64,000 nt of DNA from Bacilli bacterium (GTDB taxonomy: Bacteria > Bacillota_I > Bacilli_A > RFN20 > CAG-826), in NCBI GenBank assembly GCA_017635465.1, contig JAGBLL010000110.1:4908-68907 (forward strand), given 5' to 3'. The position numbers were made by a program, and so were the translations under genes. Positions within the stretch are counted from its first letter, which is position 1, and the number at the start of each line of letters is the position of its first letter. The notes beneath the pieces are model-generated. The model was given only the letters and a program-made list of their open reading frames with translations, ran no database searches and was not told the origin of the DNA. Of the stretch, positions 25,671 through 39,026 are shown piece by piece.

Positions 25671-25946
25671 ATGACACAAGCGTTACCAAAGGTACTACCA
25701 GTTAATGAACTTAAGAATACAGCCAATATAATGAAAACATGCCAAGAAAGCCCAGTTCCTATTGTTATTACTAGAAACGGTTATGGAGAAGCTGTCATGA
25801 TGAGCATTGCTCTTTATGAAGAATTGTTCGCTAAGGTTCAAGCAGCCACTTTAATCAATGAAGGAATTGATGAAATCGAAAAAGGCGCTAAAGGTATGGA
25901 CGGTGATGAATTCTTTAATCGCATGAACAAAAAGTATGGAAAGTAA
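25671..25946 (+). CDS. type II antitoxin, Phd/YefM family
   Basis: 91 aa with the PVPIVITRNGYGEAVMMS..YEEL pattern. Overlaps the toxin start by 11 nt. Confidence 0.8.
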   Translation: MTQALPKVLPVNELKNTANIMKTCQESPVPIVITRNGYGEAVMMSIALYEELFAKVQAATLINEGIDEIEKGAKGMDGDEFFNRMNKKYGK

Positions 25947-26247
25947 ATATACTTTAAATATTTATCCTTCTACACAACTAGATTTGGATAAAATCTTTGC
26001 TTACATTTATAACGATTTATCAAATCCAAAAGCTGCCATTGATTTAATTGATACTTTTCGTATATCTTTTAATAATCTACGTTATTTTCCTGAGAGCAAT
26101 CCATTAGTTAATAACGAATATGTAAAAGATAAGTCGCTGCGTAAGCTTCTTGTTAAAAACTACATTGCCTTTTATCGTATTAGAGGCTACGAAATTCAAA
26201 TCGTCAGAGTTCTTTATGGAATGAGCAATTATCAAATGCTTCTCTAG
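25936..26247 (+). CDS. type II toxin, RelE/ParE family
   Basis: 103 aa. ParE-like architecture (..FPESNP..., IAFYRI...I.IVRVLYG). Confidence 0.8.
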   Translation: MESKYTLNIYPSTQLDLDKIFAYIYNDLSNPKAAIDLIDTFRISFNNLRYFPESNPLVNNEYVKDKSLRKLLVKNYIAFYRIRGYEIQIVRVLYGMSNYQMLL

Positions 26248-26464
26248 CTATTGTTATACATTTATCAAACAATCAATCAAAGTTTAAAGACTGTATTTTC
26301 AAGGATCTATTAGTGATATTCAAAACTCATTAGTGGTAGATGTTTTCTTCTAAATAATATCTAAGGGATTTAAAAACTTAAGGTGCCAAAATGTAACCTT
26401 GGCCTGTGGCACTTCTGTGACAAATGCCATGTTAATATACAAGCAACAAAGGAGAACTTTGATA

Positions 26465-26746
26465 ATGAAAGAAGAACTATTAAAAGGTTTAACTAAAGAA
26501 CAAATCGAAAAAGTTAAAGCCTGTAAAAGCCAAGAAGAAATTTTAGATTTAGCAAGAAAAGAAGGCATTGAACTCACCGATGAACAATTAGAAGCGGCCA
26601 ATGGTGGTTTTTGTTCAGTTGATGAAACAAGATGCCCAAACTGTGGTAGTAAATATGTTAATAGACTTGGCGTTTATGATGGCTGGGCCTATGACTGTCG
26701 AGAATGCTATTATCATTGGATCGTCAAAACAAACACCGATAATTAA
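26465..26746 (+). CDS. Nif11-like double-glycine leader peptide with Cys-rich (Zn-ribbon-like) core
   Basis: SD aaaggag at 26449-26455, ATG at 26465. Leader MKEELLKGLTKEQIEKVKACKSQEEILDLARKEGIELTDEQLEAANGG. The 45-aa core carries CPNC...CREC plus one extra Cys. Confidence 0.7.
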   Translation: MKEELLKGLTKEQIEKVKACKSQEEILDLARKEGIELTDEQLEAANGGFCSVDETRCPNCGSKYVNRLGVYDGWAYDCRECYYHWIVKTNTDN

Positions 26747-26833: not shown

Positions 26834-26860
26834 AATCCTGAATAGCATCAGGATTTTTTT
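26834..26860 (+). terminator. intrinsic terminator (TCCTGA/TCAGGA hairpin family)
   Basis: aatcctga-atagca-tcaggatt followed by ttttt. Confidence 0.7.
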
Positions 26861-26921
26861 GTATAATTGTTCTAAGAAAAAATATTTTTATACATTTTTG
26901 ATTTTATAACCGTCTTTACTT

Positions 26922-27437
26922 ATGAAAGCTGCTTTCAAAATGAATGTGACCATCAAGACTGCCAAACTGTTTCTTCAAGGCGACGAAGAAGCAATCTCTA
27001 GTGTATATCGAAGTTATCGCTCATTGCTTTACTTCATTATCGCTACTTATCTAAATCAAAAAGAAGATTGCGATGACGTCTACCAAAATGTATTTGTAAA
27101 AATACTCGATAGAAGAAATGGAGTTAAAGATCCTTCTTCCTTGCATTCCTACTTGTGCACAATGGCGAAAAACGAAGCGATTGATTACGCTAAAAAACGC
27201 TCTCGCGAACATGGTAGTGATGTCTTAGAAGATATGTGCGCGGATAACCAAGTAACGCAATTAGATTACTTCCTTCCTTACGATTTAACTAAGGAAGAGA
27301 AAATGATTGTCGGTTATCGGTTAACATTCGGTCTATCTTGGCAAGAAATTAATGAGCTAACAGGTATACCACTTGGCACTCTCAAATACCGTTATTCTCA
27401 AGCTATTGATAAAGTCAAAAGGAGTTTAAAAAGATGA
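26922..27437 (+). CDS. ECF-like sigma-70 family RNA polymerase sigma factor
   Basis: Region 2 (DDVYQNVFVKIL...MAKNEAIDYAKKR) and region 4 HTH (LSWQEINELTGIPLGTLKYRYSQA) only. The start could instead be the ATG at 26940. Confidence 0.85.
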   Translation: MKAAFKMNVTIKTAKLFLQGDEEAISSVYRSYRSLLYFIIATYLNQKEDCDDVYQNVFVKILDRRNGVKDPSSLHSYLCTMAKNEAIDYAKKRSREHGSDVLEDMCADNQVTQLDYFLPYDLTKEEKMIVGYRLTFGLSWQEINELTGIPLGTLKYRYSQAIDKVKRSLKR

Positions 27438-29275
27438 AAAGAATTGAAAAAGAAATCAAAAAGAACAGTACGAAACTTATTGAATCATCATTACCAGAAA
27501 TCAGTTCTTTAGATAATATTCCTACAAAAGTTAAAAAGAATAATCGTCTACCTTTATTCTTTATTCCTGCTGGAGCTCTTGCTTTAGCAGCAGTGGCAAT
27601 CATGATTCCTTTACTCATGAAACAAGTAGTGCCAGCGCAGTTACCATCCTCACCAGCATCAAATAATTACTCTTCAATCAATTATTACAATAGCAATAAC
27701 GTTGTTAATAGCAATAATACTGGTGACAGTGTTCCTCAAAATCCTCAAACTAATCACACATACCATTTTGATTTTGCTAATTACAAACCAACATTTAGTG
27801 ATTTTAACGAAATCGCATATTATTCCTATATTGCTTATCAAGGCAATCAAAACGTTTCACCACAAAAGCACAATAAAGCAATGCTTAACGATATAGCGGA
27901 AGAGCAAGAAGAGCATGTTAGTTCATCTTATATTGATGCTTATGGAAGAAAACATTATCCGCTTCCTCTAACAGATGAATACACATTCTCTAACTTTGTC
28001 TTTTTTGAATTCGATTCTGAAGGCTGTCATTTCTTAGAAGAAAGAATAGGCAATGGACACATCCATGGCCTAGCTCTTAAATTTAGCTATATGAATGAAA
28101 ATGTGCCAATCTTACAAAGTGAAGAAATGCTCATATTGAAAAACGAAGGTCGCTATTATTCTTGCTTATGCAATGGTGGTGGTAATAACGGACTTGACAA
28201 TAGAATGTTTATTCAATTCTCTGCTCATAAGGTAATTGAAGGTTTTGATATTGTTAAAGACGCCACCAATAAAAGATATATCGAATTAGGCTTTGAAACT
28301 TTTAACGACTACGAATCACTAGATAGTATCACTATTGAAGGATCATCATATCCTATTATTGCGGAATCAGTTCATTATGATAACGTATCAGTTACCTGTT
28401 CTTTCGAGGATTTAAAGGAACAATTAGAACTAAATCCTGAATATAAAGCCGCTGATGGCTATGGTGGTGTTGATGTCCTTGTTTATGATGCTGAGCACCC
28501 AGAGAGTAACAGCTTCACATTAGATGAATTTGAAGGCACATTCAGTGTTAATGGAAACACAATTACTTTGAACAATGAGGAAGTTGTTTCCATTAATGGA
28601 ATTACAAAAGTTTATGCTTCTGAAATCAATAAAGATTCACATCGTGATTTAGTCTTTGAAACAGTTAATAATACAATCCGCTCTATCAATGTCTTTGATA
28701 TTTATAATAAGAAACTAATCTATCAAGAATCCAATAATGCCATCGATAGATATGGCGATCATTATCTTGACATGATGAATGGCCGTTTAGTTATTAAATT
28801 ACTTGAATATGGCATGACTGATGATCGCTATTTGATTGATTATGGTTACTTCTCATACTATGGAATTAAACAGCTCACTATTGTTTATCAAAACTATTTT
28901 GAACTCACAGAAATGAGAGCCCACCGTGTCCTTGAAAATGATAATGAAACGCTAGTGCCATTTATCGATACTCATTATCGTTTCAATAGCAACACTCCAT
29001 ATATTCTTGAAATTAAGATGAATAAATATCCTGGTAATAAAAATCCTAATTATCCAAGCATTGGTGATCATCAAATTGTTTGTAAACCATTTGCGGAAGT
29101 TGAAGATATGCCAAATATGTCTCCTGAATTTACTTTCTTATCAATGGAAAATGGTATCTACCGTTATCAAATTAAGTTCCAAGAAAAAGGATATTCATAT
29201 TACACATTCTCTTTCTACCGTTTCAGCTTTGATTTAAGAGTGGCAGTGGATGAACCTGTTACGGTTGAACAGTAA
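27434..29275 (+). CDS. putative anti-sigma / sensor membrane protein with a large novel extracytoplasmic domain
   Basis: ATGA overlap with the sigma stop. About 38-aa cytoplasmic N-terminus, one TM helix (about 27551-27620), an N/S-rich linker, then about 500 aa with no motif I recognise. Confidence 0.45.
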   Translation: MKRIEKEIKKNSTKLIESSLPEISSLDNIPTKVKKNNRLPLFFIPAGALALAAVAIMIPLLMKQVVPAQLPSSPASNNYSSINYYNSNNVVNSNNTGDSVPQNPQTNHTYHFDFANYKPTFSDFNEIAYYSYIAYQGNQNVSPQKHNKAMLNDIAEEQEEHVSSSYIDAYGRKHYPLPLTDEYTFSNFVFFEFDSEGCHFLEERIGNGHIHGLALKFSYMNENVPILQSEEMLILKNEGRYYSCLCNGGGNNGLDNRMFIQFSAHKVIEGFDIVKDATNKRYIELGFETFNDYESLDSITIEGSSYPIIAESVHYDNVSVTCSFEDLKEQLELNPEYKAADGYGGVDVLVYDAEHPESNSFTLDEFEGTFSVNGNTITLNNEEVVSINGITKVYASEINKDSHRDLVFETVNNTIRSINVFDIYNKKLIYQESNNAIDRYGDHYLDMMNGRLVIKLLEYGMTDDRYLIDYGYFSYYGIKQLTIVYQNYFELTEMRAHRVLENDNETLVPFIDTHYRFNSNTPYILEIKMNKYPGNKNPNYPSIGDHQIVCKPFAEVEDMPNMSPEFTFLSMENGIYRYQIKFQEKGYSYYTFSFYRFSFDLRVAVDEPVTVEQ

Positions 29276-29428
29276 GTAACTATACAGAATTATAAGGGCA
29301 AATTTCCGCCCCTTTTGTTTATGTAAAGAATAAACAAGTTAGTTTTACTAAATATCGATATATCAATTAAGAAAAAATACTTTTTTCACTATGAAATATA
29401 CTTATGCATGCGCTAAAATAATTTTAAA

Positions 29429-30019
29429 GTGAATTTGAAAGTTTATTTACTGGATTATCGAGCCCTCCCTTTATCTTTTCTTATGGATTCTAAATATCTA
29501 TCAGAACTAGAAAAGATATCATTTCAAAAATATAAAAACGAAAACGTTAAAAAAGAAAAAATAGTGTCCGCTATTTTGAAAAATAAATATATTGGTGATT
29601 ACCATTTCAACGAATACGGTAAACCAATAAGCAATAATAAATATTTCAATATCAGCCATAGTGATGGTTATATTGCTTTAGTTATTGATCAAGTGCCTGT
29701 GGGCATTGATATTGAAAATATTAGAAATGCTGAAGAAGATTTAAGAAACTATATTTCTAATGACGAAGAAAAGAAATACATCCATGATGATGAATCTTTC
29801 TTTGAAGTATGGACTAATAAAGAAGCATTAGTAAAGGCTAATGGAAATGGTATTAATCAAAAGATTAAAACTATTCAATCATTACCACTTAACGCTATTA
29901 GAACATACAACAACAAAACATATTTTAATAAAACAATCAAATATCAGAATTTAGTCATCACTGTATCAAGGGCAAGTAGTGATGATTTTAATATTAATAT
30001 CATGGAGGAGTATATTTAA
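29429..30019 (+). CDS. Sfp-type 4'-phosphopantetheinyl transferase
   Basis: FNISHSDGY, GIDIE and W.NKEALVKA motifs. GTG (29429) or TTG (29435) start. Stop lies 1 nt before the NRPS ATG. Confidence 0.85.
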   Translation: MNLKVYLLDYRALPLSFLMDSKYLSELEKISFQKYKNENVKKEKIVSAILKNKYIGDYHFNEYGKPISNNKYFNISHSDGYIALVIDQVPVGIDIENIRNAEEDLRNYISNDEEKKYIHDDESFFEVWTNKEALVKANGNGINQKIKTIQSLPLNAIRTYNNKTYFNKTIKYQNLVITVSRASSDDFNINIMEEYI

Positions 30020-30020
30020 T

Positions 30021-33000
30021 ATGGTCAAAACATACCCTTTAAGTAAGAGTGAAGAAGGTATTTATATCTCTTCATTAGCGGGTGGCGACGCTTATAATCT
30101 CGCTCATTTAGTGTCATTAGGGAGAGACGTTACAAAAGAGCAAGTTGAAGCTGCTTTAAACAAAGTGGTGGAAGCCCATCCTTATATTTTTACTGTTCTT
30201 TCTAATGATGAAAACGGTAACGTTGTTAAAAGCATTAAACAACAAAAGATTGTTCTTGAATGTGAAGAAGTTAAAGAACTTAACATCGTTTCTAAACCAT
30301 ATCAATTATTGGATTCACCTTTATATCGCTTCAAACTTTATAAAGTGAAAGATGAATATGTTTTCTATTTTGATTTTTATCATCTCATCATGGATGGTAC
30401 ATCTATTAAAGTATTCATTGATGATTTCTTTTCTTCGCTTGAAGGTAAAAAATTAATCAAAGAACAAAGTGACGCGAATGAATATGCATTAAAGGAACAA
30501 AAAGATTTAGCGAAACCAATTTATCAAGAATGCAAAGACTACTATGAAAAACTAGTGGGCGATGTGGAAACTGATTCCTCCCTCGTCGAAGATAAAAAAG
30601 ACGAAACAGTTTCATATCAATCGTTCAAACAAAAATTATCAATTAAAAATAAACAGATTAAAGAAATCACTAATAAATTAGGCCTTAAAACATCTACTTA
30701 TTTCTTAGGTGCTTTCTCCTATTTATTAATGAAATTTAGCATGGATACTGCTTCTTTATTCTTAACAGTTAATAACGCTAGAACAAAAGAAGTAGCGAGA
30801 AGCTTTGGTAGCTTTGTTAAAACATATCCTTTATATGTTAATTTCGAAAATATCGATAATGTTCCTGACTTATTAAAATTGGTGAATGAAGAGAATATCG
30901 AAAACGTTAAACATAATACATATCCATATTCCTCATTAGTGAAAGACTTTGGTGTTTCTTCTGATGTCTTATTCGCTTATCAAGGTGACTATTTCTATAA
31001 TGGTTCATATAACGGCAAGCAAATTACTGTTGAACAACTTGATAGAAAAGATGGCAAAGAAAAACTCGCAATTGAATGTCACCGTTTAGGCGATGAATTC
31101 TTACTCTGGGTTGAATACCGCAGTGATATTTATTATGAAAGCACAATCCGTCATTTCATTAAGTTATTTGATATCGTCTTAAATGAATTCCTAGCGTTAG
31201 GAAAATTAGATGATATTAACTTTGTTAATAAAGAAGATTTAGAATTGATGGATTCTTTCAATATCACTGATCCTAAATATCTTGATACTTCAAAAACAAT
31301 ACTTGATGACTTTGAAGATTGCGTAAAGAAATTCCCAAATAATTACGCAGTTGTCTTTAAAGATAAAAAATACACATATAAAGAGGTGGATGAAATTACC
31401 ACAAGAATCGCTAATGAATTAATTAAGCATGGTGCGGGAAGAGAGAAAGTTGTCTCTATCTTAATTCATAAATCTGAATATGTTGTCCTCGCTTCTTTAG
31501 CGGTCATTAAATCTGGTTCTGCTTATCAACCACTTGATCCAACATATCCAGAAGATCGATTAAATTTCATGGTCAAAGACTCATCCGCGATTATCTTAAT
31601 TAGAGATGATGATTTAGGCGACCTAATCCATGAATTTAAAGGACATGAAATATTAACAAGTTCCTTATTATCTTTAAAAGATGATACCCCAATTAAAACT
31701 ATACCAGAATCTAAAGACTTATTCATTATGCTTTATACATCTGGCTCCACTGGTTTACCAAAAGGTGTCATGCTTGAACATGGCAATATCCATGCTTTCT
31801 GTATCTATCATAGAGAAATTCAAGAAATCGATGAAAATTCACATTGCAGTGCCTATGCTTCATATGGTTTTGACGCGGATATGATGGACTTATATCCCGC
31901 TTTAACAAGTGGTGCAACAGTTTATATCATTCCTGATGAAATGCGTTTAAACCTCGTTGAACTTGGTGAATATTTTAACGCTAATAACATCACTCACTCA
32001 TTTATTACTACCCAAGTCGGTAGACAATTCGCTAGTGAAATTGAATGTTCGTCACTCAAATATTTCGCTGTCGGTGGCGAAAAGCTCGTTCCAATTGAAC
32101 CTCCAAAAGGTTATAGATTCTTTAATATCTATGGTCCAACCGAAGGTACAGTTTATTGCACTAGCCAAGAAGTTGATAAATTATATTACCGTATTCCAAT
32201 TGGTAAACCGTTACCAACATACAAAATGTATGTTTTAGATAAGAATAAAAAGAGATTACCATTCTTATGTAATGGTGAACTCTATATCTCTGGTCCACAA
32301 GTGGCAAGAGGTTACTTAAATAGAGAAAAAGAAAATAAAGAAGCTTTCTTAACTAACCCATTCACCAAAGAAAAAGGCTACACCAATTTCTATAAAACAG
32401 GTGATATCGTGAGAATGCTTCCAGATGGCACAATTGACTTTATCGGCCGTAAAGATGGACAAGTCAAGATTAGAGGCTTCCGTATTGAATTATCAGAAGT
32501 CGAAGGTGTCATTAGAGAATTCCCTGGCATTAAAGACGCGACAATTAAGGATTTCACCGATCCAAGTGGTGTGAAATATATCGTTGCTTATATCGTTAGT
32601 GACAAACAAATCAATGTTGAAGAGCTAAATCAATATATCTTATCAAAGAAACCGCCTTATATGGTTCCTGCTTACACAATGCAAATTGATAAGATTCCAC
32701 TTAACCAAAACCAAAAAGTTAATAAACGCGCTTTACCACAAGTCGAACTTAAAGCGGAAGAAATCGTCCCACCAGAAGGTGAAGATGAACAAATTATCTT
32801 TGATATCTTAAAAGATGTTTTAGGTCATGACCAATTCGGTGTCACAAGTGATATTTATAACGTTGGTTTAACTTCCGTTTCTTCAATTAGATTTAGTATT
32901 CTCTTATCAAAGAAATTCAATAAACCTGTGGAAAACGAAGACCTAAAGTCACATCCAACAATCCGCTCCTTAGCGGCGTTCTTAAACGCTAAAGAAGGCG

Positions 33001-36000
33001 ACAAGGTATATGATTTACGTGAAGAATATCCAATTAGTAAGACACAAGAAGGTGTCTTCATTGAATGCGCTTCTAAAGCGGATTCCACAACTTATAACAT
33101 TCCATATTTATTTAAACTTGATAAACGCATCGACTTAAATAAATTAAAAGAAGCTTTAATCAAAGCGCTTGATAACCATCCATATCTCAAGACCACATTA
33201 AAGATGAATGAAGACGGCGATATTCTCGCTCTTAGAAAAGAAACAGAAAGTGTTGTCTCCATCATTAAAGAAGATATCGTTAAAGAGAAATTAATCCGTC
33301 CATTTAAACTATTGGATGCTCCTTTATATCGCATTGAAATATATGAAGGTAAAGATAATTATCTCTATTTAGATTTCCATCACATCATCTGTGACGGCAC
33401 TAGTGAAGCAATCTTCTTATCTGACTTAAACAAAGTGTTCAAAGGTGAACAATTAACTAAAGAAGAATTCACTGGCTTTGAAGTGGCTTTAAAAGAAAAA
33501 GAAGACTTACAAAGCGATAAACTTCCTAAAGCTAAAGAATATTATCACAAAGTGCTTAAGGACATCGATGGTGAATATATACCTAAAAAAGACTTAAAAG
33601 TCGCTAAAGAGCATAGACTCGCTTCTATCGATTACGCTTTGAAATTAGACAATAACAAAGTTAACGAATACGTTAAATCTAATAAACTCACTAATAATGC
33701 TTTATTTAACTTTGCATTTGGTTATACATTATCTAAATTCATTTATCGTAAAGATGCTTTATATGTGACTATTTATAATGGTCGAAAATCTTCTAAATTA
33801 TTTAATACCACATCGATGCTAGTTAAAACTTTCCCAGTTTATCTATCTTATGAAGAAGATGATGAAATCATTAAGAAAGTGAGCTTCATCAAAGATGAAT
33901 TAAGTGGCTTAGAAGAACATGATATCTATTCATTCGCGGATATCGTTAAAGATTATGATATATCCGCGGATGTAATGTTTGCCTATCAAGGTGATGATTT
34001 CTCATTCAAAGAAATCGGTGGTTATCCAGTCGAATCAATCTTGCTTGAAAGTGATACCACTAAAACACCATTTGGTTTAGATATCTTCCTAGAAGATGGT
34101 GTCTTTAGAGCCCACTATGAATACGATATCGCTATTTATAATGAGAATAGTATCGCTGCATTTAATAGATTATTTGAACTCGTTTTAAATGAAATCTTAG
34201 TTAAAAAGCAAATCAAAGACATCAATACTCTTCCAGAAGAAGATAAGAAATTATACGCCATCACAAACGATACTGACGTTGAAATTCCTAACGATGTTAC
34301 TGTAAATAAGATATTTGAAAAACAAGTCGAATTACATAAAGATAAAGTCGCAGTTATCGATGTCTGTAGCCAATTTACATATCAAGAATTAAATGCATTA
34401 GCAAACAAAGTAGCTCACACGTTAATCGATAATGGTGTGACTAAGAACCAAACAGTGGTGATGTTAATGCCTAGATTAAAAGAAGCTTATGCGGTGAGAC
34501 AAGGTATTGTTAAATCCGGTGGAGCCTTCTTACCAATCGATCCAAAATATCCAGATGAACGTGTTGGCTATATTATTGGAAATTCTCAAACTCAATACGT
34601 CATTACCACCAAGAAAGTCTTAGAAGAAAAAGAACAATTATTAAAAGACGCGAAAGTTAAAGTGTTCTTAATCGAAGATATCGCTAAATCAAATAAAGCG
34701 GACAATCCAAACGTTAAGATTAGTCAAAAAGATTTAGCGTATGTCATCTATACATCAGGTAGTACAGGCAAACCAAAAGGCGTGATGATTTCACACCGCA
34801 ATATCCTTAACTACGTTTTAGATGGCAACAATTTAACAACCGCTGAATATCGTTATATTGGGGAAGAATGTGTGAGTTGCTCATTTGCTTCATTATCATT
34901 CGATGCTTCTTTGCAAGAAGAATTCGTCCCATTAACTCATGGTTATACTGTTGTTATCGCTAGTGAAGAAGAAATTGAAAATCCATTACTTCTCGCTCAA
35001 ACACTCAAAAAGCATGGTGTAAATATCATGTTTATGACACCATCATTTGTCTCTAACTTATTAGATATTCCACAGTTCGTTGAAGCATTACGTAATTTCA
35101 AAGTCCTAGATATGGGCGCGGAAGCAGTGCCAATCGAATTATGTCAAAAACTTAGAGGTTTAGGCGTTAACGCTCAAATCAATAATGGGTATGGCCCAAC
35201 TGAAACAACAATTACATCAACATATAGTACTGTTAAAGATGAATACATGACCATTGGTCGACCAGTTGGTAACACTAAAGCTTATATCTTAGATAAAGCG
35301 GGTCATATTTTACCAATCAACGCTATTGGTGATTTAACTCTCGCTGGTGAATCTGTTGGTATGGGATATTTAGGTAATGAAGAAAAAACCAAACAAGTAT
35401 TCATTGAATTAAACGGTTTACGTGCCTATAGAACTGGTGACTTAGCAAGAATTAATGGCGATGGTAACATCGAATTCTTTGGTCGACTTGATAACCAAGT
35501 TAAATTAAGAGGTTTGCGTGTTGAACTTGATGAAATTGAAAAGGTTATCAACACCTATCCAGGCATGTCCACAAGTATCGTTATTGTGAAAAACGCCCCA
35601 GAAGGTGATTACTTAGTGGCCTATTTCGTTGCTAGCAAAGAAATTGATAAAGATGATTTAACCGCTCATATTTCTAAATCATTAACGCCATATATGATTC
35701 CAAAGGCGATGATGCAATTAGATAAATTACCGTTAACAGCGAATGGCAAAGTCGATAAGAAAAACTTGCCAGCCATTCAAGTTAACGAAACTAAAAAAGA
35801 AATCAAAGAAGCAAGTAACGAACTTGAAAAGAAACTCGTTGCCTTATTCCAAAAAGCATTAGCTAATCCAAATGTCGGTGTGGATGATGACTTCTTTGAA
35901 CTCGGTGGTACATCATTAAGTGTTTCTAAGATTGCGATGCTCGCATTAAATGAAAACTTACCGATCGCTTATGGTGATGTCTTTGAGTATCCAACTGTCT

Positions 36001-37238
36001 TACAACTTGAAGAACACATCAATTCTTTACAAGGTAATGCCAAAAAACAAGATGAAAAGAAAGAAGAATATGAATTCGCTTCACTTAAACATAACGTTGT
36101 GGAAGAAGTTGATGACATCAAGATTGATTTCGAATATAAGAAAGTCTTACTCGCTGGCGCTACTGGCTTCTTAGGTATCCACTTATTATATGAATTAATT
36201 CAACAAAAGAATCATGTCGTGGCCTTAGTTAGAGGTGGTAGCTTATCCGCTAAAGATCGCTTGTTAGCGATGTTAACATATTATTTTGATTCACCATTCG
36301 AAGAAGAAATTGAACAATATGTTGAAGTCGTTGACGCTGATGTCACTAATAATGATTTATATGAAAAATTAAAAGATTATGATTTCAATATCATCATTAA
36401 CTCCGCGGCGATTGTTAAACACTTCGCTAACGATGACATCATTGAAAGAGTGAATGTCGGTGGTGTGAAGAATCTCATCGAAATTGCTAAAGCAAAGAAA
36501 GCGAGAATTATTCAAATCTCAACACTTTCTGTCGCTGGTGAAAACATCGATAATAAGTTCCCATCTTCTTTCAAAATCAAAGAAAACATGCTCGACTTTG
36601 GTCAAGATGTCTCTAATAAATATGTCCATTCTAAATTCAACGGAGAAAAAGCTATCTTAGAAGCTATTGATAAGGATGGCGTGGACGCCAAGATCATCCG
36701 TGTTGGTAACTTAATGAGTAGACAAAGAGATGGTGAATTCCAGGCTAACTCCATTACTAACGGCTTTATGCGTGACTTAAAAGGTTATGTTACGCTCCAT
36801 GAATTCCCAGTTAATTCAATGGATGGCACAGTTGACTTCTCACCAATCGATGAAGTCGCTAAGACAATTATCTTGTTATCCAAGACACCAAGTAAATTTA
36901 CAGTCTTCCATTCCGCTAACTCACATATGGTGGAAATGGGTGATATTATCTATGTCTTAAACGAACTTGGCTTTGATATTAAAGTTGTCCCAGATAACGA
37001 ATTCCTTGAAGGTATGAAACGCATGATGATGGATGACACTAAGAGTATGCTTGTTTCTTCCTTAATTTCATATTCCAGTAGCGACATGCATACACATCAA
37101 TTTATTGGCTCTGATAATGAATTTACAAATAAAGCGTTGTATCATTTAGCGTATAAATGGCCAATTACTGACTATGAATATCTAAAGAACGCCATCATCT
37201 CACTTCAAACACTAGACTTCTTTGAAAGGAACGACTAA
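30021..37238 (+). CDS. bimodular nonribosomal peptide synthetase, C-A-T-C-A-T-R (terminal thioester reductase)
   Basis: Start at ATG 30021 with SD ggaggag at 30004-30010.
- C1: YHLIMDG (30378-30398).
- A1: YTSGSTGLPKG (31734-31766), NIYGPTE, GRKDGQVKIRGFRIEL.
- T1: GLTS, Ser codon 32873-32875.
- C2: HHIICDG (33378-33398).
- A2: YTSGSTGKPKG (34749-34781), NGYGPTE, GRLDNQVKLRGLRVEL.
- T2: GGTS, Ser codon 35913-35915.
- R: GATGFLG (36156-36176) and YVHSK (36621-36635). Confidence 0.95.
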   Translation: MVKTYPLSKSEEGIYISSLAGGDAYNLAHLVSLGRDVTKEQVEAALNKVVEAHPYIFTVLSNDENGNVVKSIKQQKIVLECEEVKELNIVSKPYQLLDSPLYRFKLYKVKDEYVFYFDFYHLIMDGTSIKVFIDDFFSSLEGKKLIKEQSDANEYALKEQKDLAKPIYQECKDYYEKLVGDVETDSSLVEDKKDETVSYQSFKQKLSIKNKQIKEITNKLGLKTSTYFLGAFSYLLMKFSMDTASLFLTVNNARTKEVARSFGSFVKTYPLYVNFENIDNVPDLLKLVNEENIENVKHNTYPYSSLVKDFGVSSDVLFAYQGDYFYNGSYNGKQITVEQLDRKDGKEKLAIECHRLGDEFLLWVEYRSDIYYESTIRHFIKLFDIVLNEFLALGKLDDINFVNKEDLELMDSFNITDPKYLDTSKTILDDFEDCVKKFPNNYAVVFKDKKYTYKEVDEITTRIANELIKHGAGREKVVSILIHKSEYVVLASLAVIKSGSAYQPLDPTYPEDRLNFMVKDSSAIILIRDDDLGDLIHEFKGHEILTSSLLSLKDDTPIKTIPESKDLFIMLYTSGSTGLPKGVMLEHGNIHAFCIYHREIQEIDENSHCSAYASYGFDADMMDLYPALTSGATVYIIPDEMRLNLVELGEYFNANNITHSFITTQVGRQFASEIECSSLKYFAVGGEKLVPIEPPKGYRFFNIYGPTEGTVYCTSQEVDKLYYRIPIGKPLPTYKMYVLDKNKKRLPFLCNGELYISGPQVARGYLNREKENKEAFLTNPFTKEKGYTNFYKTGDIVRMLPDGTIDFIGRKDGQVKIRGFRIELSEVEGVIREFPGIKDATIKDFTDPSGVKYIVAYIVSDKQINVEELNQYILSKKPPYMVPAYTMQIDKIPLNQNQKVNKRALPQVELKAEEIVPPEGEDEQIIFDILKDVLGHDQFGVTSDIYNVGLTSVSSIRFSILLSKKFNKPVENEDLKSHPTIRSLAAFLNAKEGDKVYDLREEYPISKTQEGVFIECASKADSTTYNIPYLFKLDKRIDLNKLKEALIKALDNHPYLKTTLKMNEDGDILALRKETESVVSIIKEDIVKEKLIRPFKLLDAPLYRIEIYEGKDNYLYLDFHHIICDGTSEAIFLSDLNKVFKGEQLTKEEFTGFEVALKEKEDLQSDKLPKAKEYYHKVLKDIDGEYIPKKDLKVAKEHRLASIDYALKLDNNKVNEYVKSNKLTNNALFNFAFGYTLSKFIYRKDALYVTIYNGRKSSKLFNTTSMLVKTFPVYLSYEEDDEIIKKVSFIKDELSGLEEHDIYSFADIVKDYDISADVMFAYQGDDFSFKEIGGYPVESILLESDTTKTPFGLDIFLEDGVFRAHYEYDIAIYNENSIAAFNRLFELVLNEILVKKQIKDINTLPEEDKKLYAITNDTDVEIPNDVTVNKIFEKQVELHKDKVAVIDVCSQFTYQELNALANKVAHTLIDNGVTKNQTVVMLMPRLKEAYAVRQGIVKSGGAFLPIDPKYPDERVGYIIGNSQTQYVITTKKVLEEKEQLLKDAKVKVFLIEDIAKSNKADNPNVKISQKDLAYVIYTSGSTGKPKGVMISHRNILNYVLDGNNLTTAEYRYIGEECVSCSFASLSFDASLQEEFVPLTHGYTVVIASEEEIENPLLLAQTLKKHGVNIMFMTPSFVSNLLDIPQFVEALRNFKVLDMGAEAVPIELCQKLRGLGVNAQINNGYGPTETTITSTYSTVKDEYMTIGRPVGNTKAYILDKAGHILPINAIGDLTLAGESVGMGYLGNEEKTKQVFIELNGLRAYRTGDLARINGDGNIEFFGRLDNQVKLRGLRVELDEIEKVINTYPGMSTSIVIVKNAPEGDYLVAYFVASKEIDKDDLTAHISKSLTPYMIPKAMMQLDKLPLTANGKVDKKNLPAIQVNETKKEIKEASNELEKKLVALFQKALANPNVGVDDDFFELGGTSLSVSKIAMLALNENLPIAYGDVFEYPTVLQLEEHINSLQGNAKKQDEKKEEYEFASLKHNVVEEVDDIKIDFEYKKVLLAGATGFLGIHLLYELIQQKNHVVALVRGGSLSAKDRLLAMLTYYFDSPFEEEIEQYVEVVDADVTNNDLYEKLKDYDFNIIINSAAIVKHFANDDIIERVNVGGVKNLIEIAKAKKARIIQISTLSVAGENIDNKFPSSFKIKENMLDFGQDVSNKYVHSKFNGEKAILEAIDKDGVDAKIIRVGNLMSRQRDGEFQANSITNGFMRDLKGYVTLHEFPVNSMDGTVDFSPIDEVAKTIILLSKTPSKFTVFHSANSHMVEMGDIIYVLNELGFDIKVVPDNEFLEGMKRMMMDDTKSMLVSSLISYSSSDMHTHQFIGSDNEFTNKALYHLAYKWPITDYEYLKNAIISLQTLDFFERND

Positions 37239-37240
37239 TT

Positions 37241-38983
37241 GTGGAGAGAAATAGTAAACTAGTTAACCGTAAATTCATTCATTATCTCATTCCGTCGATA
37301 TTGATGATTTTTGCGATGCAATTTTCTTCCTTACTTGATGGTATCTTAATTGGTAACTTGATTTCTGGCGAAGCTCTTGCGGCGACATCTTTAGTTATGC
37401 CAGTACTATATATCGTCCAAGCTCCTGGTTTTGCTTTAGGAGTAGGGGGATCAATTGTCGTTGCTAATAAATTAGGTAAAAGAGATATCGAAGGGGCAAA
37501 AAAGACGTTCTCTATATCAATTATTTTAGGTGTTGGAATATCTATATTATTTGCCGCGATATCATTCTTTGTTTCCGCACCATTAGCAAAGCTATTTGGT
37601 GAAGCATCATATGAATTATCTTATCCATATATCTATATGTATTTATTGACCGATCCAATTATTACTTTAGCTTTGCTTCTTGGTTCCTTTATGGCGGTTG
37701 ATAATAACCCAAAATTATCATCAATATTCTTTATTATTTCTAATGTCGCGAAAGTCGGCTTAGAGTTCATCTTTATTAAATTATTTAATTGGGGAATGTA
37801 TGGCGCCGCTTTATCTACCGGAGCGGGTTTCGTCGTCGCGTTTGTCGCTTTACCTTTCTACATTAAAAACGATAAGCGCATGCTTGGCTTAACTTTCAAG
37901 GTTAAAGGCACGAAGATATTTGAAATTATTAAATCTTCATCAACATCAGGTTTGAATCTTATTTTAACCGCGATTCAAATGCTGATTGTTAATATCTTTT
38001 TAGGCAAGTTAGTCACTAATCCAGTCGACTTATTAGCCTTTGGTTTAATCGCTAATATTGTCTTCGTCTTTGACTTATTCTGTGGTGGTATCTTAAATGT
38101 TATTCCTAATATTGTGGGTATCTTTTATGGTGAAAAAGATTATTATTCACTGAGATCAGTTACTAGAAAAATATTCTGGATTAATATTATTGTGGCCGCG
38201 GTTATTACCGCAGTTATCGCTGCCTTACCAAATGTCTATTCATTTATCTTTGGCTATACTGAACAAACAGATATGAGTTATATTGCACTCTTAATTAGAA
38301 TCTATCTCATCTCATTATTACCATCAGAAATTAGTAAATTCTCGATGAATTACTATCCATCCATTGATAAGAATCTACCTTCTTTAATTACTGTTTTCTT
38401 AAGAGAAGCTGTCTTAGTGTTGCCATTAACACTAGTGTTATTATTCACTAATGGTGTTTTAGGTTATTGCACTGCCTACGCTATTACGGAAGTAGCGACA
38501 GTCTTAATTACTTATATATTTATCCTTATATACAATAAAAAGAAAAATACATATTCCATCTTCATGTTTGAAAGAGGAGATGTTGAATCTTTCGATACTT
38601 CTTTAGATAACAACATTAATAATGCTTCTATTGTTTCTGAACAACTCACTAACTACGCTCGTAGTATTGGTGTGGCGGAAAGAGAAAGCCAAATCGTTGG
38701 TCTAGCCGCAGAAGAAATAGTGGGTAATATCATCACATATGGTTATAAGCATAAACATAAAAACTATATCGATATTTCATTAAGGAAAATTAACGATGTT
38801 CTCTTATTAAGAATTAGAGATGATGGTATGCCATTTGACCCAACTAAATATGAATTTGATAATGATGAGAATTATTCCACAAGTGGCATACAGTTAATTA
38901 ATAAATTAACTGATAAGATGACTTATATGCGTGTATTAAGTCTTAATAACACGATATTTGAAATCAATATCAGGGGGAACTAG
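37241..38983 (+). CDS. MATE-family efflux transporter fused to a C-terminal SpoIIAB/RsbW-like GHKL ATPase domain
   Basis: GTG start 2 nt after the NRPS stop. About 440 aa with 12 TM helices (MATE-like). From about 38575 the tail has an N-box EEIVGNIITYGY, a G1-like RDDGMPFDP and a G2-like SGIQLI. Confidence 0.78.
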   Translation: MERNSKLVNRKFIHYLIPSILMIFAMQFSSLLDGILIGNLISGEALAATSLVMPVLYIVQAPGFALGVGGSIVVANKLGKRDIEGAKKTFSISIILGVGISILFAAISFFVSAPLAKLFGEASYELSYPYIYMYLLTDPIITLALLLGSFMAVDNNPKLSSIFFIISNVAKVGLEFIFIKLFNWGMYGAALSTGAGFVVAFVALPFYIKNDKRMLGLTFKVKGTKIFEIIKSSSTSGLNLILTAIQMLIVNIFLGKLVTNPVDLLAFGLIANIVFVFDLFCGGILNVIPNIVGIFYGEKDYYSLRSVTRKIFWINIIVAAVITAVIAALPNVYSFIFGYTEQTDMSYIALLIRIYLISLLPSEISKFSMNYYPSIDKNLPSLITVFLREAVLVLPLTLVLLFTNGVLGYCTAYAITEVATVLITYIFILIYNKKKNTYSIFMFERGDVESFDTSLDNNINNASIVSEQLTNYARSIGVAERESQIVGLAAEEIVGNIITYGYKHKHKNYIDISLRKINDVLLLRIRDDGMPFDPTKYEFDNDENYSTSGIQLINKLTDKMTYMRVLSLNNTIFEINIRGN

Positions 38984-38997
38984 TAATCATTATAATC

Positions 38998-39026
38998 AGT
39001 CCTGAAATACAATCAGGACTTTATTT
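38998..39026 (+). terminator. intrinsic terminator closing the NRPS operon (TCCTGA/TCAGGA family)
   Basis: agtcctga-aatacaa-tcaggact followed by ttatttta. Confidence 0.55.

Follow-up and report, generated by a model that had tools for sequence, protein, structure and literature searches.

A predicted MATE exporter fused to an RsbW/SpoIIAB-type GHKL domain recurs beside peptide synthetase genes of gut and rumen bacteria

What is a kinase-like domain of the SpoIIAB/RsbW class doing at the end of a transporter? The question is raised by one gene in a 64,000-nucleotide stretch of DNA from a Bacilli bacterium (GenBank assembly GCA_017635465.1, contig JAGBLL010000110.1, positions 4,908 to 68,907 of the forward strand), referred to here as the window. 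The gene, at 37241..38983 (all window features described here lie on the + strand), is the last of a non-ribosomal peptide synthetase (NRPS) operon and encodes a 580-aa protein in which a MATE transporter is followed by a C-terminal HATPase_c_2 domain of the GHKL type (the tail). An initial annotation had read the tail as an anti-sigma-like module that couples export of the NRPS product to the availability of a dedicated sigma factor encoded ahead of the operon. The fusion was confirmed in the analysis described below, and its relatives point to partners other than a sigma factor.

The open reading frame (ORF) is one uninterrupted frame of 580 codons without internal stops, and its GTG start lies 2 bases past the NRPS stop codon. 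Pfam located MatE in two segments (E=2.7e-30), and residues 463-564 matched HATPase_c_2 (E=2.8e-14, or E=1.5e-15 for the last 146 residues alone), and the body of the protein matched MATE models in NCBIfam. The AlphaFold2 (AF2) model of the whole protein (pLDDT 78.3) consists of 12 long helices (residues 6-435) and then an alpha/beta domain (residues 449-576). With two MatE repeats and 12 transmembrane helices the protein belongs to the MATE family (PF01554, MOP superfamily). Foldseek matched the first part of the model to PfMATE (6fhz, E=1.4e-11), DinF-BH, VcmN and ClbM (4z3n), with target-normalised TM-scores of 0.70-0.79 for PfMATE, DinF-BH and VcmN, and the second part to SpoIIAB; none of the 50 matches listed was a PDB chain spanning both parts. 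In the DNA the transporter domain occupies 37256..38545. It is joined by a short conserved linker (38546..38584, residues 436-448, KKNTYSIFMFERG), with M442 nearly invariant, to the RsbW/SpoIIAB-like domain at 38585..38968. An intrinsic terminator, predicted as a hairpin at 38998..39020, closes the operon. The transporter with 12 transmembrane helices as last gene of the operon, and the GHKL domain on its end, thus stand as first annotated. The frameshift that would have made the tail a separate gene is ruled out by the single frame, and an artefact of this kind is excluded because the architecture of ∼580-630 aa recurs in homologues and in the loci of other species. These sequence and model comparisons confirm that the gene encodes a predicted membrane exporter and, in the same chain, a domain of the RsbW/SpoIIAB kinase type.

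The tail was then compared with solved structures and with family models. Its own AF2 model (pLDDT 75.9) was matched by Foldseek to SpoIIAB (1l0o, 1til and 1th8; E ∼1e-8, TM-scores 0.74-0.81), with 1l0o giving the best figures (E=1.3e-8, TM-score 0.76-0.79), to RsbW (6m36 and 6m37; TM-scores up to 0.87, 0.85 for 6m37, again with E ∼1e-8 for the latter), to UsfX and to the RsbW domain of Rv1364c (3ke6). The single tail sequence searched against the PDB returned noise only and a family profile was required; with the profile RsbW ranked first and SpoIIAB was also at the top. The domain has the Bergerat ATP-binding fold at the size of SpoIIAB and RsbW (PF13581). The N-box EEIVGN (38711..38728; E491, E492 and N496, with ExxxN formed by E492 and N496) is unchanged throughout 28 diverse representatives and 81/81 tails. 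The G1 box RDDGMPFDP (38816..38842) contains the DxG motif as D527-D-G529, likewise invariant across diverse representatives, and was aligned by the family profile with DEGDSFD of RsbW, an active kinase in which the second G1 glycine is likewise missing. The G2 box of the ATP lid, GxG in form, is degenerate: at SGIQLI (38882..38899) G549 alone is invariant and the second Gly is replaced, and many relatives have GGI where the window has SGIQ. The three motifs of the initial annotation are therefore present where it placed them, with the reservation that the G2 box of the window lineage keeps its first Gly only. NCBIfam gave weak matches of the tail to SpoIIAB, RsbW and RsbA, all far under the equivalog cut-offs (18-22 bits against 135 for SpoIIAB, TIGR01925; 13-21 bits against 145-155 for RsbW). 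The protein belongs to the MATE and HATPase_c_2 families but not to the SpoIIAB or RsbW equivalogs; assignment of the tail to the RsbW/SpoIIAB class of GHKL domains is upheld by the Pfam, Foldseek, profile and motif evidence.

The spread of the fusion was examined at several distances. All 120 homologues listed (62-100% identity, about 560-590 aa) carry MatE and HATPase_c_2 by Pfam, and mean column conservation is 0.80 in the tail vs 0.74-0.81 in the transporter. The tail alone, searched exhaustively with HMMER against 1.84 billion 50%-identity representatives, gave 1937 matches at E≤1e-3. Among the best 150 of the 1937, about half are 570-606 aa long and match in their C-terminal part (∼455-590), and most of the others are fragment-like. 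Pfam on 10 sampled representatives found MatE with HATPase_c_2 in 9, two of these having two GHKL domains; two MATE fusions, P0135 (786 aa) and P0240 (754 aa), end in two tandem HATPase_c_2 domains. In the 28 representatives (27-57% identity to the window tail), which were taken from HMMER without the use of any peptide pattern, E491, E492, N496, D511, R526 and D527 are invariant, as are F532, P534, G549, Y562 and N569. Little was gained by a further profile search of a 5.8-billion-protein database with a diverse tail alignment, in which most of the matches were short fragments.

Genomes were scanned with two tail peptide patterns, using one genome per GTDB species, and neighbourhoods were counted for the best 80 loci. 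At least 404 fusion loci were confirmed in species-representative genomes of Bacilli, Clostridia and Negativicutes. The best 80, mostly from metagenome-assembled genomes of rumen or herbivore gut, include Erysipelotrichaceae, other Bacilli and Acholeplasmatales; Ruminococcus, Monoglobus, Christensenella, Lachnospiraceae and Oscillospiraceae among many Clostridia; and Selenomonadaceae and Schwartzia among the Negativicutes. The fusion is intact at 580-630 aa in 77 of these loci and cut by the contig end in the other 3. An NRPS gene lies within 300 nt of it in 74/80 and within 3 kb in 77/80. The database survey proposed in the initial annotation thus found the architecture in numbers and beside NRPS genes. 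Judged by this distribution the fusion is old and widespread. No account of a MATE::HATPase_c_2 fusion was found in the searchable literature, in keeping with the initial annotation, for which no characterised example was known; a mention in Guo et al. 2017 or Schneider & Balskus 2018 is possible.

The operon in the window is of a recognisable type. A sigma-70-like promoter (29391-29419) precedes a gene for a 4'-phosphopantetheinyl transferase (PPTase; 29429..30019), for which AusB is the best NCBIfam match. It is followed by an NRPS gene (30021..37238) of domain order C-A-T-C-A-T-R, in which Pfam located two Condensation, two AMP-binding and two PP-binding domains and NAD_binding_4 at residues 2058-2297. 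The longest NRPS ORF begins with a GTG at 29979, in a 41-nt overlap with the PPTase gene; the true start is probably the ATG at 30021 (MVKTYPL), because the NRPS genes of relatives begin right after the PPTase stop codon. A two-module NRPS ending in a reductase, together with a PPTase, is the mark of the dipeptide-aldehyde clusters of gut Firmicutes.

Which partners does the tail have? In every relative examined at 62-83% identity the cassette was found to consist of genes for PPTase, NRPS, MATE::GHKL fusion, a 98-aa STAS protein and a 705-721-aa SpoIIE protein, usually with a second HATPase_c_2 domain; the flanks differ from lineage to lineage and contain no sigma gene. Over the best 80 loci, a STAS gene lies within 10 kb of the fusion in 49 and a SpoIIE-type PP2C gene in 34. 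A further 6 PP2C genes, some with a receiver domain, were recognised by Pfam among unlabelled neighbours (at least 40/80). At the 43 loci with full flanks both partners were present in 20, STAS only in 6, PP2C only in 2 and neither in 15, so that 28 have at least one. LEYISSAGLR is invariant in the STAS proteins, and its second Ser aligns with the Ser of DSTGL in RsbV, the phosphorylation site of that protein (Ser56). NCBIfam gave a weak match of the cassette STAS to MlaB. The cassette phosphatase has an N-terminal transmembrane/HAMP sensor region, then SpoIIE, then a C-terminal HATPase_c_2 (GHKL) domain, and its best NCBIfam match is SiaA; examples with the second HATPase_c_2 are found in L001 (12059-14218), L014 (10743-12863), L059 (10421-12406) and L082 (10549-13018). 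In L082, from Ruminococcus, the second GHKL domain is a separate 134-aa gene adjoining the STAS gene. In many Bacilli-type cassettes the G1 Asp of the phosphatase GHKL domain is replaced by S, T, C or N (SNG, TNG, CNG); this Asp is intact in the Ruminococcus type, and that of the MATE tail is invariant. The MATE tail is therefore the better candidate for a working kinase in Bacilli-type cassettes. By these alignments and neighbourhoods the tail, the STAS protein and the sensor PP2C appear to form a partner-switching set without a sigma factor in the relatives. In several cassettes another, more divergent STAS gene lies a few kb off, in some of them together with a further PP2C-like gene (L018, 13038-16368; L031, 2131-5508; L015, 16210-16509; L042, 18332-18631), which suggests duplicated switch modules.

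The window belongs to a lineage in which these genes are not linked to the fusion. No STAS or PP2C gene was found in its 64 kb by tblastn or profile hidden Markov models (HMMs), and no remnant of either in the 287-nt downstream spacer or in all six frames of the window. Only the window's own lineage at 98-100% identity (L009, L010 and L013) has the order sigma, membrane protein, PPTase, NRPS and fusion, with surface-protein and glycoside-hydrolase genes directly after it. The system of the window is not a complete partner switch. STAS-type proteins had been named as possible partners in the initial annotation; they recur in relatives and are missing from the window itself. The tail of this lineage was compared between the window and L009 and L013, which likewise have no linked STAS or PP2C gene. 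It has 14 synonymous and 4 non-synonymous changes, and the ratio of non-synonymous to synonymous rates (dN/dS) is 0.063 for the tail and 0.034 for the MATE part. With the closest relative that has a STAS gene, the tail shares 84% identity, against 83% for the whole protein. A decaying relic tail was considered as a candidate and rejected on the dN/dS of 0.063, the intact motif residues and a sequence at the family consensus.

We favour, with moderate confidence, the reading that the fusion serves as dedicated exporter for an NRPS cassette of the dipeptide-aldehyde type and that its tail is a STAS-directed serine-kinase and partner-switching domain. The observations that carry it are the architecture, the fold, motif conservation, the neighbourhoods, co-inheritance with the NRPS and, for the most part, with STAS and PP2C, and purifying selection. 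The tail would bind ATP and STAS and be active as a kinase, with STAS as its presumed substrate and the exporter as the presumed output. In the ancestral and commonest form of the cassette it would act with the co-transcribed 98-aa STAS protein and the membrane-anchored sensor PP2C. Unphosphorylated STAS would dock on the tail; the tail would phosphorylate the STAS serine and release it; and the PP2C would regenerate STAS upon an extracytoplasmic or membrane cue. The switch may gate the exporter or report on its transport state, and release of a reactive protease inhibitor would thereby be matched to conditions. The output is likeliest to be post-translational, because the components are co-transcribed with the synthetase and no sigma or transcription factor travels with them. 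Dipeptide-aldehyde clusters make reactive protease inhibitors (PMC8518294, PMC12327764), for which a closely controlled release is plausible. In the window lineage the tail may use unlinked partners or have a partner-independent, ATP-dependent role.

Several points weigh against a STAS-directed kinase. The 80 loci were found by two tail peptide patterns, so the identity of E491, E492, N496, D511, G549, Y562 and R564 in 81/81 tails, partner-linked or not, is partly circular at the pattern positions; the set of 28 pattern-free representatives agrees with the same picture of conservation. Genes in the loci were called by a simple ORF heuristic, and STAS and PP2C were found with ad hoc HMMs. About a third of the full-flank loci (15/43), for example in Monoglobus and Selenomonadaceae, have no STAS or PP2C gene nearby, and the tail may therefore not strictly need them. 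The window has neither a linked STAS protein with a phosphorylatable Ser nor a linked SpoIIE-type PP2C. Because its G2 box is degenerate, catalysis by the tail is not guaranteed. The direction of control, whether the switch controls the exporter or the exporter drives the switch, is not deducible from sequence.

Both directions are allowed for in a more specific proposal, in which the transport cycle of the MATE part is mechanically coupled to the RsbW-like kinase. Flux of a reactive peptide aldehyde through the pump would set STAS phosphorylation, as a form of flux sensing, or STAS as set by a PP2C that senses the extracellular side would gate the pump. The short, conserved linker (residues 436-448) fits such coupling of pump and tail, and we put the exporter-tethered circuit forward as a tentative idea. 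The general claim of a link between export and a signalling switch still stands; its sigma-specific form does not.

Two other explanations appear unlikely to us, about equally so. The tail may tether an unlinked regulator, a group-3 sigma factor or another, and release it according to flux or STAS state, so that export feeds back on expression. Membrane sequestration of regulators by transport proteins is established (PtsG-Mlc, MalK-MalT), the fold and motifs of the tail are those of SpoIIAB and RsbW, and the tail is conserved even where no STAS or PP2C gene is linked. However, no candidate target is conserved in the neighbourhood, and tight linkage of the fusion to NRPS genes and not to any regulator argues for a local role. 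The tail may instead be an autonomous nucleotide sensor, either kinase-dead or responsive to ATP and ADP, that modulates the MATE part directly, with STAS and PP2C as optional additions. The 15 of 43 full-flank loci without linked partners, in which all motif residues are retained, would be accounted for in this way, and so would the degenerate G2 box of the window lineage and the short conserved linker to transmembrane helix 12. Against a mere sensor, the N-box Glu and Asn and the G1 Asp are strictly kept as in active kinases, the G1 box is RsbW-like, in most lineages the tail is inherited together with a STAS protein that has the phosphorylatable Ser, and partners missing from a locus could be encoded elsewhere.

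Sequestration of the neighbouring sigma factor by the tail, with export coupled to sigma availability and so to transcription of the operon, was the reading of the initial annotation and is now improbable. The gene for the extracytoplasmic function (ECF)-type sigma factor (26922..27437) lies ∼10 kb upstream on the same strand, as a neighbour outside the conserved cassette. Its stop codon is overlapped by the gene for a 613-aa single-pass membrane protein (27434..29275), to which it is translationally coupled; this protein matches no family and is the presumed cognate anti-sigma. Sigma orthologues in related species, at 75-78% and 57% identity, always have an overlapping downstream gene for a membrane protein of ∼440-610 aa, and the next genes are unrelated and never NRPS. 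The pair is therefore considered an independent unit and not a dedicated regulator of the cluster; by the same comparison its place beside the cluster is a feature specific to the window lineage. In the window the two units are split by a GC-rich terminator-like hairpin with a T-run (∼29296-29318), 3' of the membrane protein gene, and by the sigma-70-like promoter. The claim of a dedicated sigma factor ahead of the operon was given up on these grounds. No homologue of the window sigma was found at the 80 loci (in L013, of the window's own species, the flank ends before the sigma gene; the flanks of the other 79 are without one), and Sigma70 is absent from the 25 neighbour Pfam families listed of 102. 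Co-inheritance of a sigma gene with the tail, as expected of an anti-sigma, was thus not seen in the 80 loci.

Promoter sequences were compared for the same question. An A-rich 17-mer, TAAGAAAAAATAYTTTT, occurs 5' of the sigma gene (26873-26889) and 5' of the PPTase gene (29368-29384), with just these two copies in 64 kb against 0.03 expected by chance; among 92 loci it is confined to the window lineage. This favours the sigma reading, as does the loss of STAS and PP2C in the one lineage that gained the sigma neighbourhood. The element conserved 5' of the sigma orthologues is, however, TTTATAAYCGTCTTWACTTATG, with an ECF-like CGTC, and alignment of the upstream regions showed that it is not present 5' of the PPTase gene. 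The 17-mer, tried as a common ECF promoter, was accordingly downgraded to an unexplained repeat. The known targets of RsbW and SpoIIAB are group-3 sigma factors, which also counts against an ECF-type target, and the tail of the window lineage has no accelerated change (84% vs 83% identity; dN/dS 0.06). Transcription of the NRPS operon by this sigma factor is unproven and its sequestration by the tail unsupported; coupling of export to sigma availability did not hold up, given a sigma factor with its own membrane partner, no recurrent sigma gene and no CGTC element 5' of the PPTase gene. For the window, the neighbouring sigma should not be annotated as the cluster regulator or as the target of the tail. 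That the tail is a relic decaying after loss of STAS and PP2C, as their absence from the window, L009, L010 and L013 might suggest, is very hard to credit with so few non-synonymous changes, all motif residues kept and a consensus-like sequence.

The STAS-directed reading was compared with systems already described. SpoIIAB/RsbW systems, with SpoIIAA/RsbV and SpoIIE/RsbU, resemble it in the fold of the tail (TM-scores 0.76-0.87), the N-box ExxxN, the RsbW-like G1 (DxGxxFD) and, in relatives of the window, an adjacent STAS protein with a phosphorylatable Ser and a PP2C. They differ in that here the domain is fused to a MATE exporter with 12 transmembrane helices in a cassette without a sigma gene, the tail is far below the equivalog cut-offs (18 bits vs 135-155) with a degenerate G2, and the phosphatase bears a second GHKL domain. 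Partner switching with outputs other than sigma factors has been described (PMC8256260, PMC10120452, bioRxiv 10.64898/2026.04.08.717354), and the HenR/All4160 switch of Anabaena exerts direct control over a biosynthetic enzyme that bears the STAS domain (bioRxiv 10.64898/2026.04.08.717354). SiaABCD of Pseudomonas, SypE/SypA of Vibrio fischeri and HenR/All4160 share the triad of kinase, STAS and PP2C and the non-sigma output, and SiaA, best match of the cassette PP2C, is the phosphatase of such a switch. Here the presumed effector is fused to the kinase and not to the STAS domain, and it is a secondary transporter encoded within a natural-product cluster. Rv1364c of M. tuberculosis combines PAS, PP2C, RsbW and RsbV in one chain; it is alike in having fused partner-switching domains, in the PP2C-kinase order shared by the PP2C::HATPase_c_2 protein of relatives, and in its RsbW domain (3ke6) matched by Foldseek, but it is soluble and has no transporter.

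Transporters with STAS modules provide a second comparison. MlaB is a STAS protein that acts on the MlaFEDB ABC transporter. In SLC26/SulP proteins a C-terminal STAS domain regulates or stabilises the transporter (PMC8256260). Both tie a STAS module to a transporter, and both are without a kinase or phosphorylation cycle, whereas here the transporter bears the kinase domain and STAS is free. ClbM of the colibactin island shares the MATE fold (4z3n in Foldseek) and the position of the exporter gene at the cluster end; like all solved MATE structures, and unlike the fusion, it has no C-terminal signalling domain. Dipeptide-aldehyde and pyrazinone NRPS clusters of gut Firmicutes were reportedly described by Guo et al. 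2017, and Schneider & Balskus 2018 are said to have reported ruminopeptin. Clusters with a C-A-T-C-A-T-R synthetase and an AusB-like PPTase are found in gut and rumen Firmicutes (PMC8518294, PMC12327764). The domain order of the synthetase and the AusB-like PPTase of the window agree with this group, which includes ruminopeptin and AusAB of S. aureus; the kinase tail and the STAS and PP2C genes are the difference, and were not found described for it in the searchable literature.

The remaining features of the region lie around the operon. Directly upstream of the region is a pair of genes for a Phd/YefM-type antitoxin (91 aa) and a ParE toxin (103 aa) at 25671-26247. A small Nif11-like ORF (26399-26746, probable start 26462; TIGR03798 21.5 bits, below the cut-off) has EAANGG followed by a Cys-rich, zinc-ribbon-like core (CPNC...CREC) at its end, and may encode the precursor of a ribosomally synthesised and post-translationally modified peptide just 5' of the sigma gene. 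A terminator (26834-26855) lies between this ORF and the sigma gene. Its stem and that of the terminator at 38998-39020, which flank the block from sigma to exporter, are alike (AATCCTGA...TCAGGATT vs AGTCCTGA...TCAGGACT); the likeness may be fortuitous or may reflect the way in which the block came together. The membrane protein of the sigma pair differs in length between near-identical strains (613 aa in the window, 594 aa in L009 at 146-1930, 617 aa in L010 at 115-1968). The start of its extracytoplasmic part is rich in Asn and Ser, and the length polymorphism is probably in that low-complexity stretch. Downstream of the terminator of the fusion gene are unrelated surface-protein and glycoside-hydrolase genes.

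In textbooks, partner switching is a means of controlling sigma factors. Examples in which it acts directly on enzymes are just emerging, and a kinase fused to a secondary transporter, if true, would extend the principle to membrane transport. The fusion is real and widespread and, from its sequence relationships, appears to be an uncharacterised variant of a known mode of regulation, partner switching with the kinase domain placed on an exporter. It is conserved beside NRPS genes across hundreds of gut and rumen species, and there may be a post-translational layer of control throughout a family of gut and rumen NRPS clusters. For the related rup cluster (ruminopeptin) of Ruminococcus bromii, the predicted products were obtained neither in culture nor by biochemistry in vitro (PMC12327764); an exporter-tethered circuit, if true, could help to explain why they are missing. 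The tail, the STAS protein and the sensor phosphatase would then provide a handle on the regulated release of protease-inhibiting peptide aldehydes, and control of that release would bear on host-microbe chemistry and on the activation of silent clusters.

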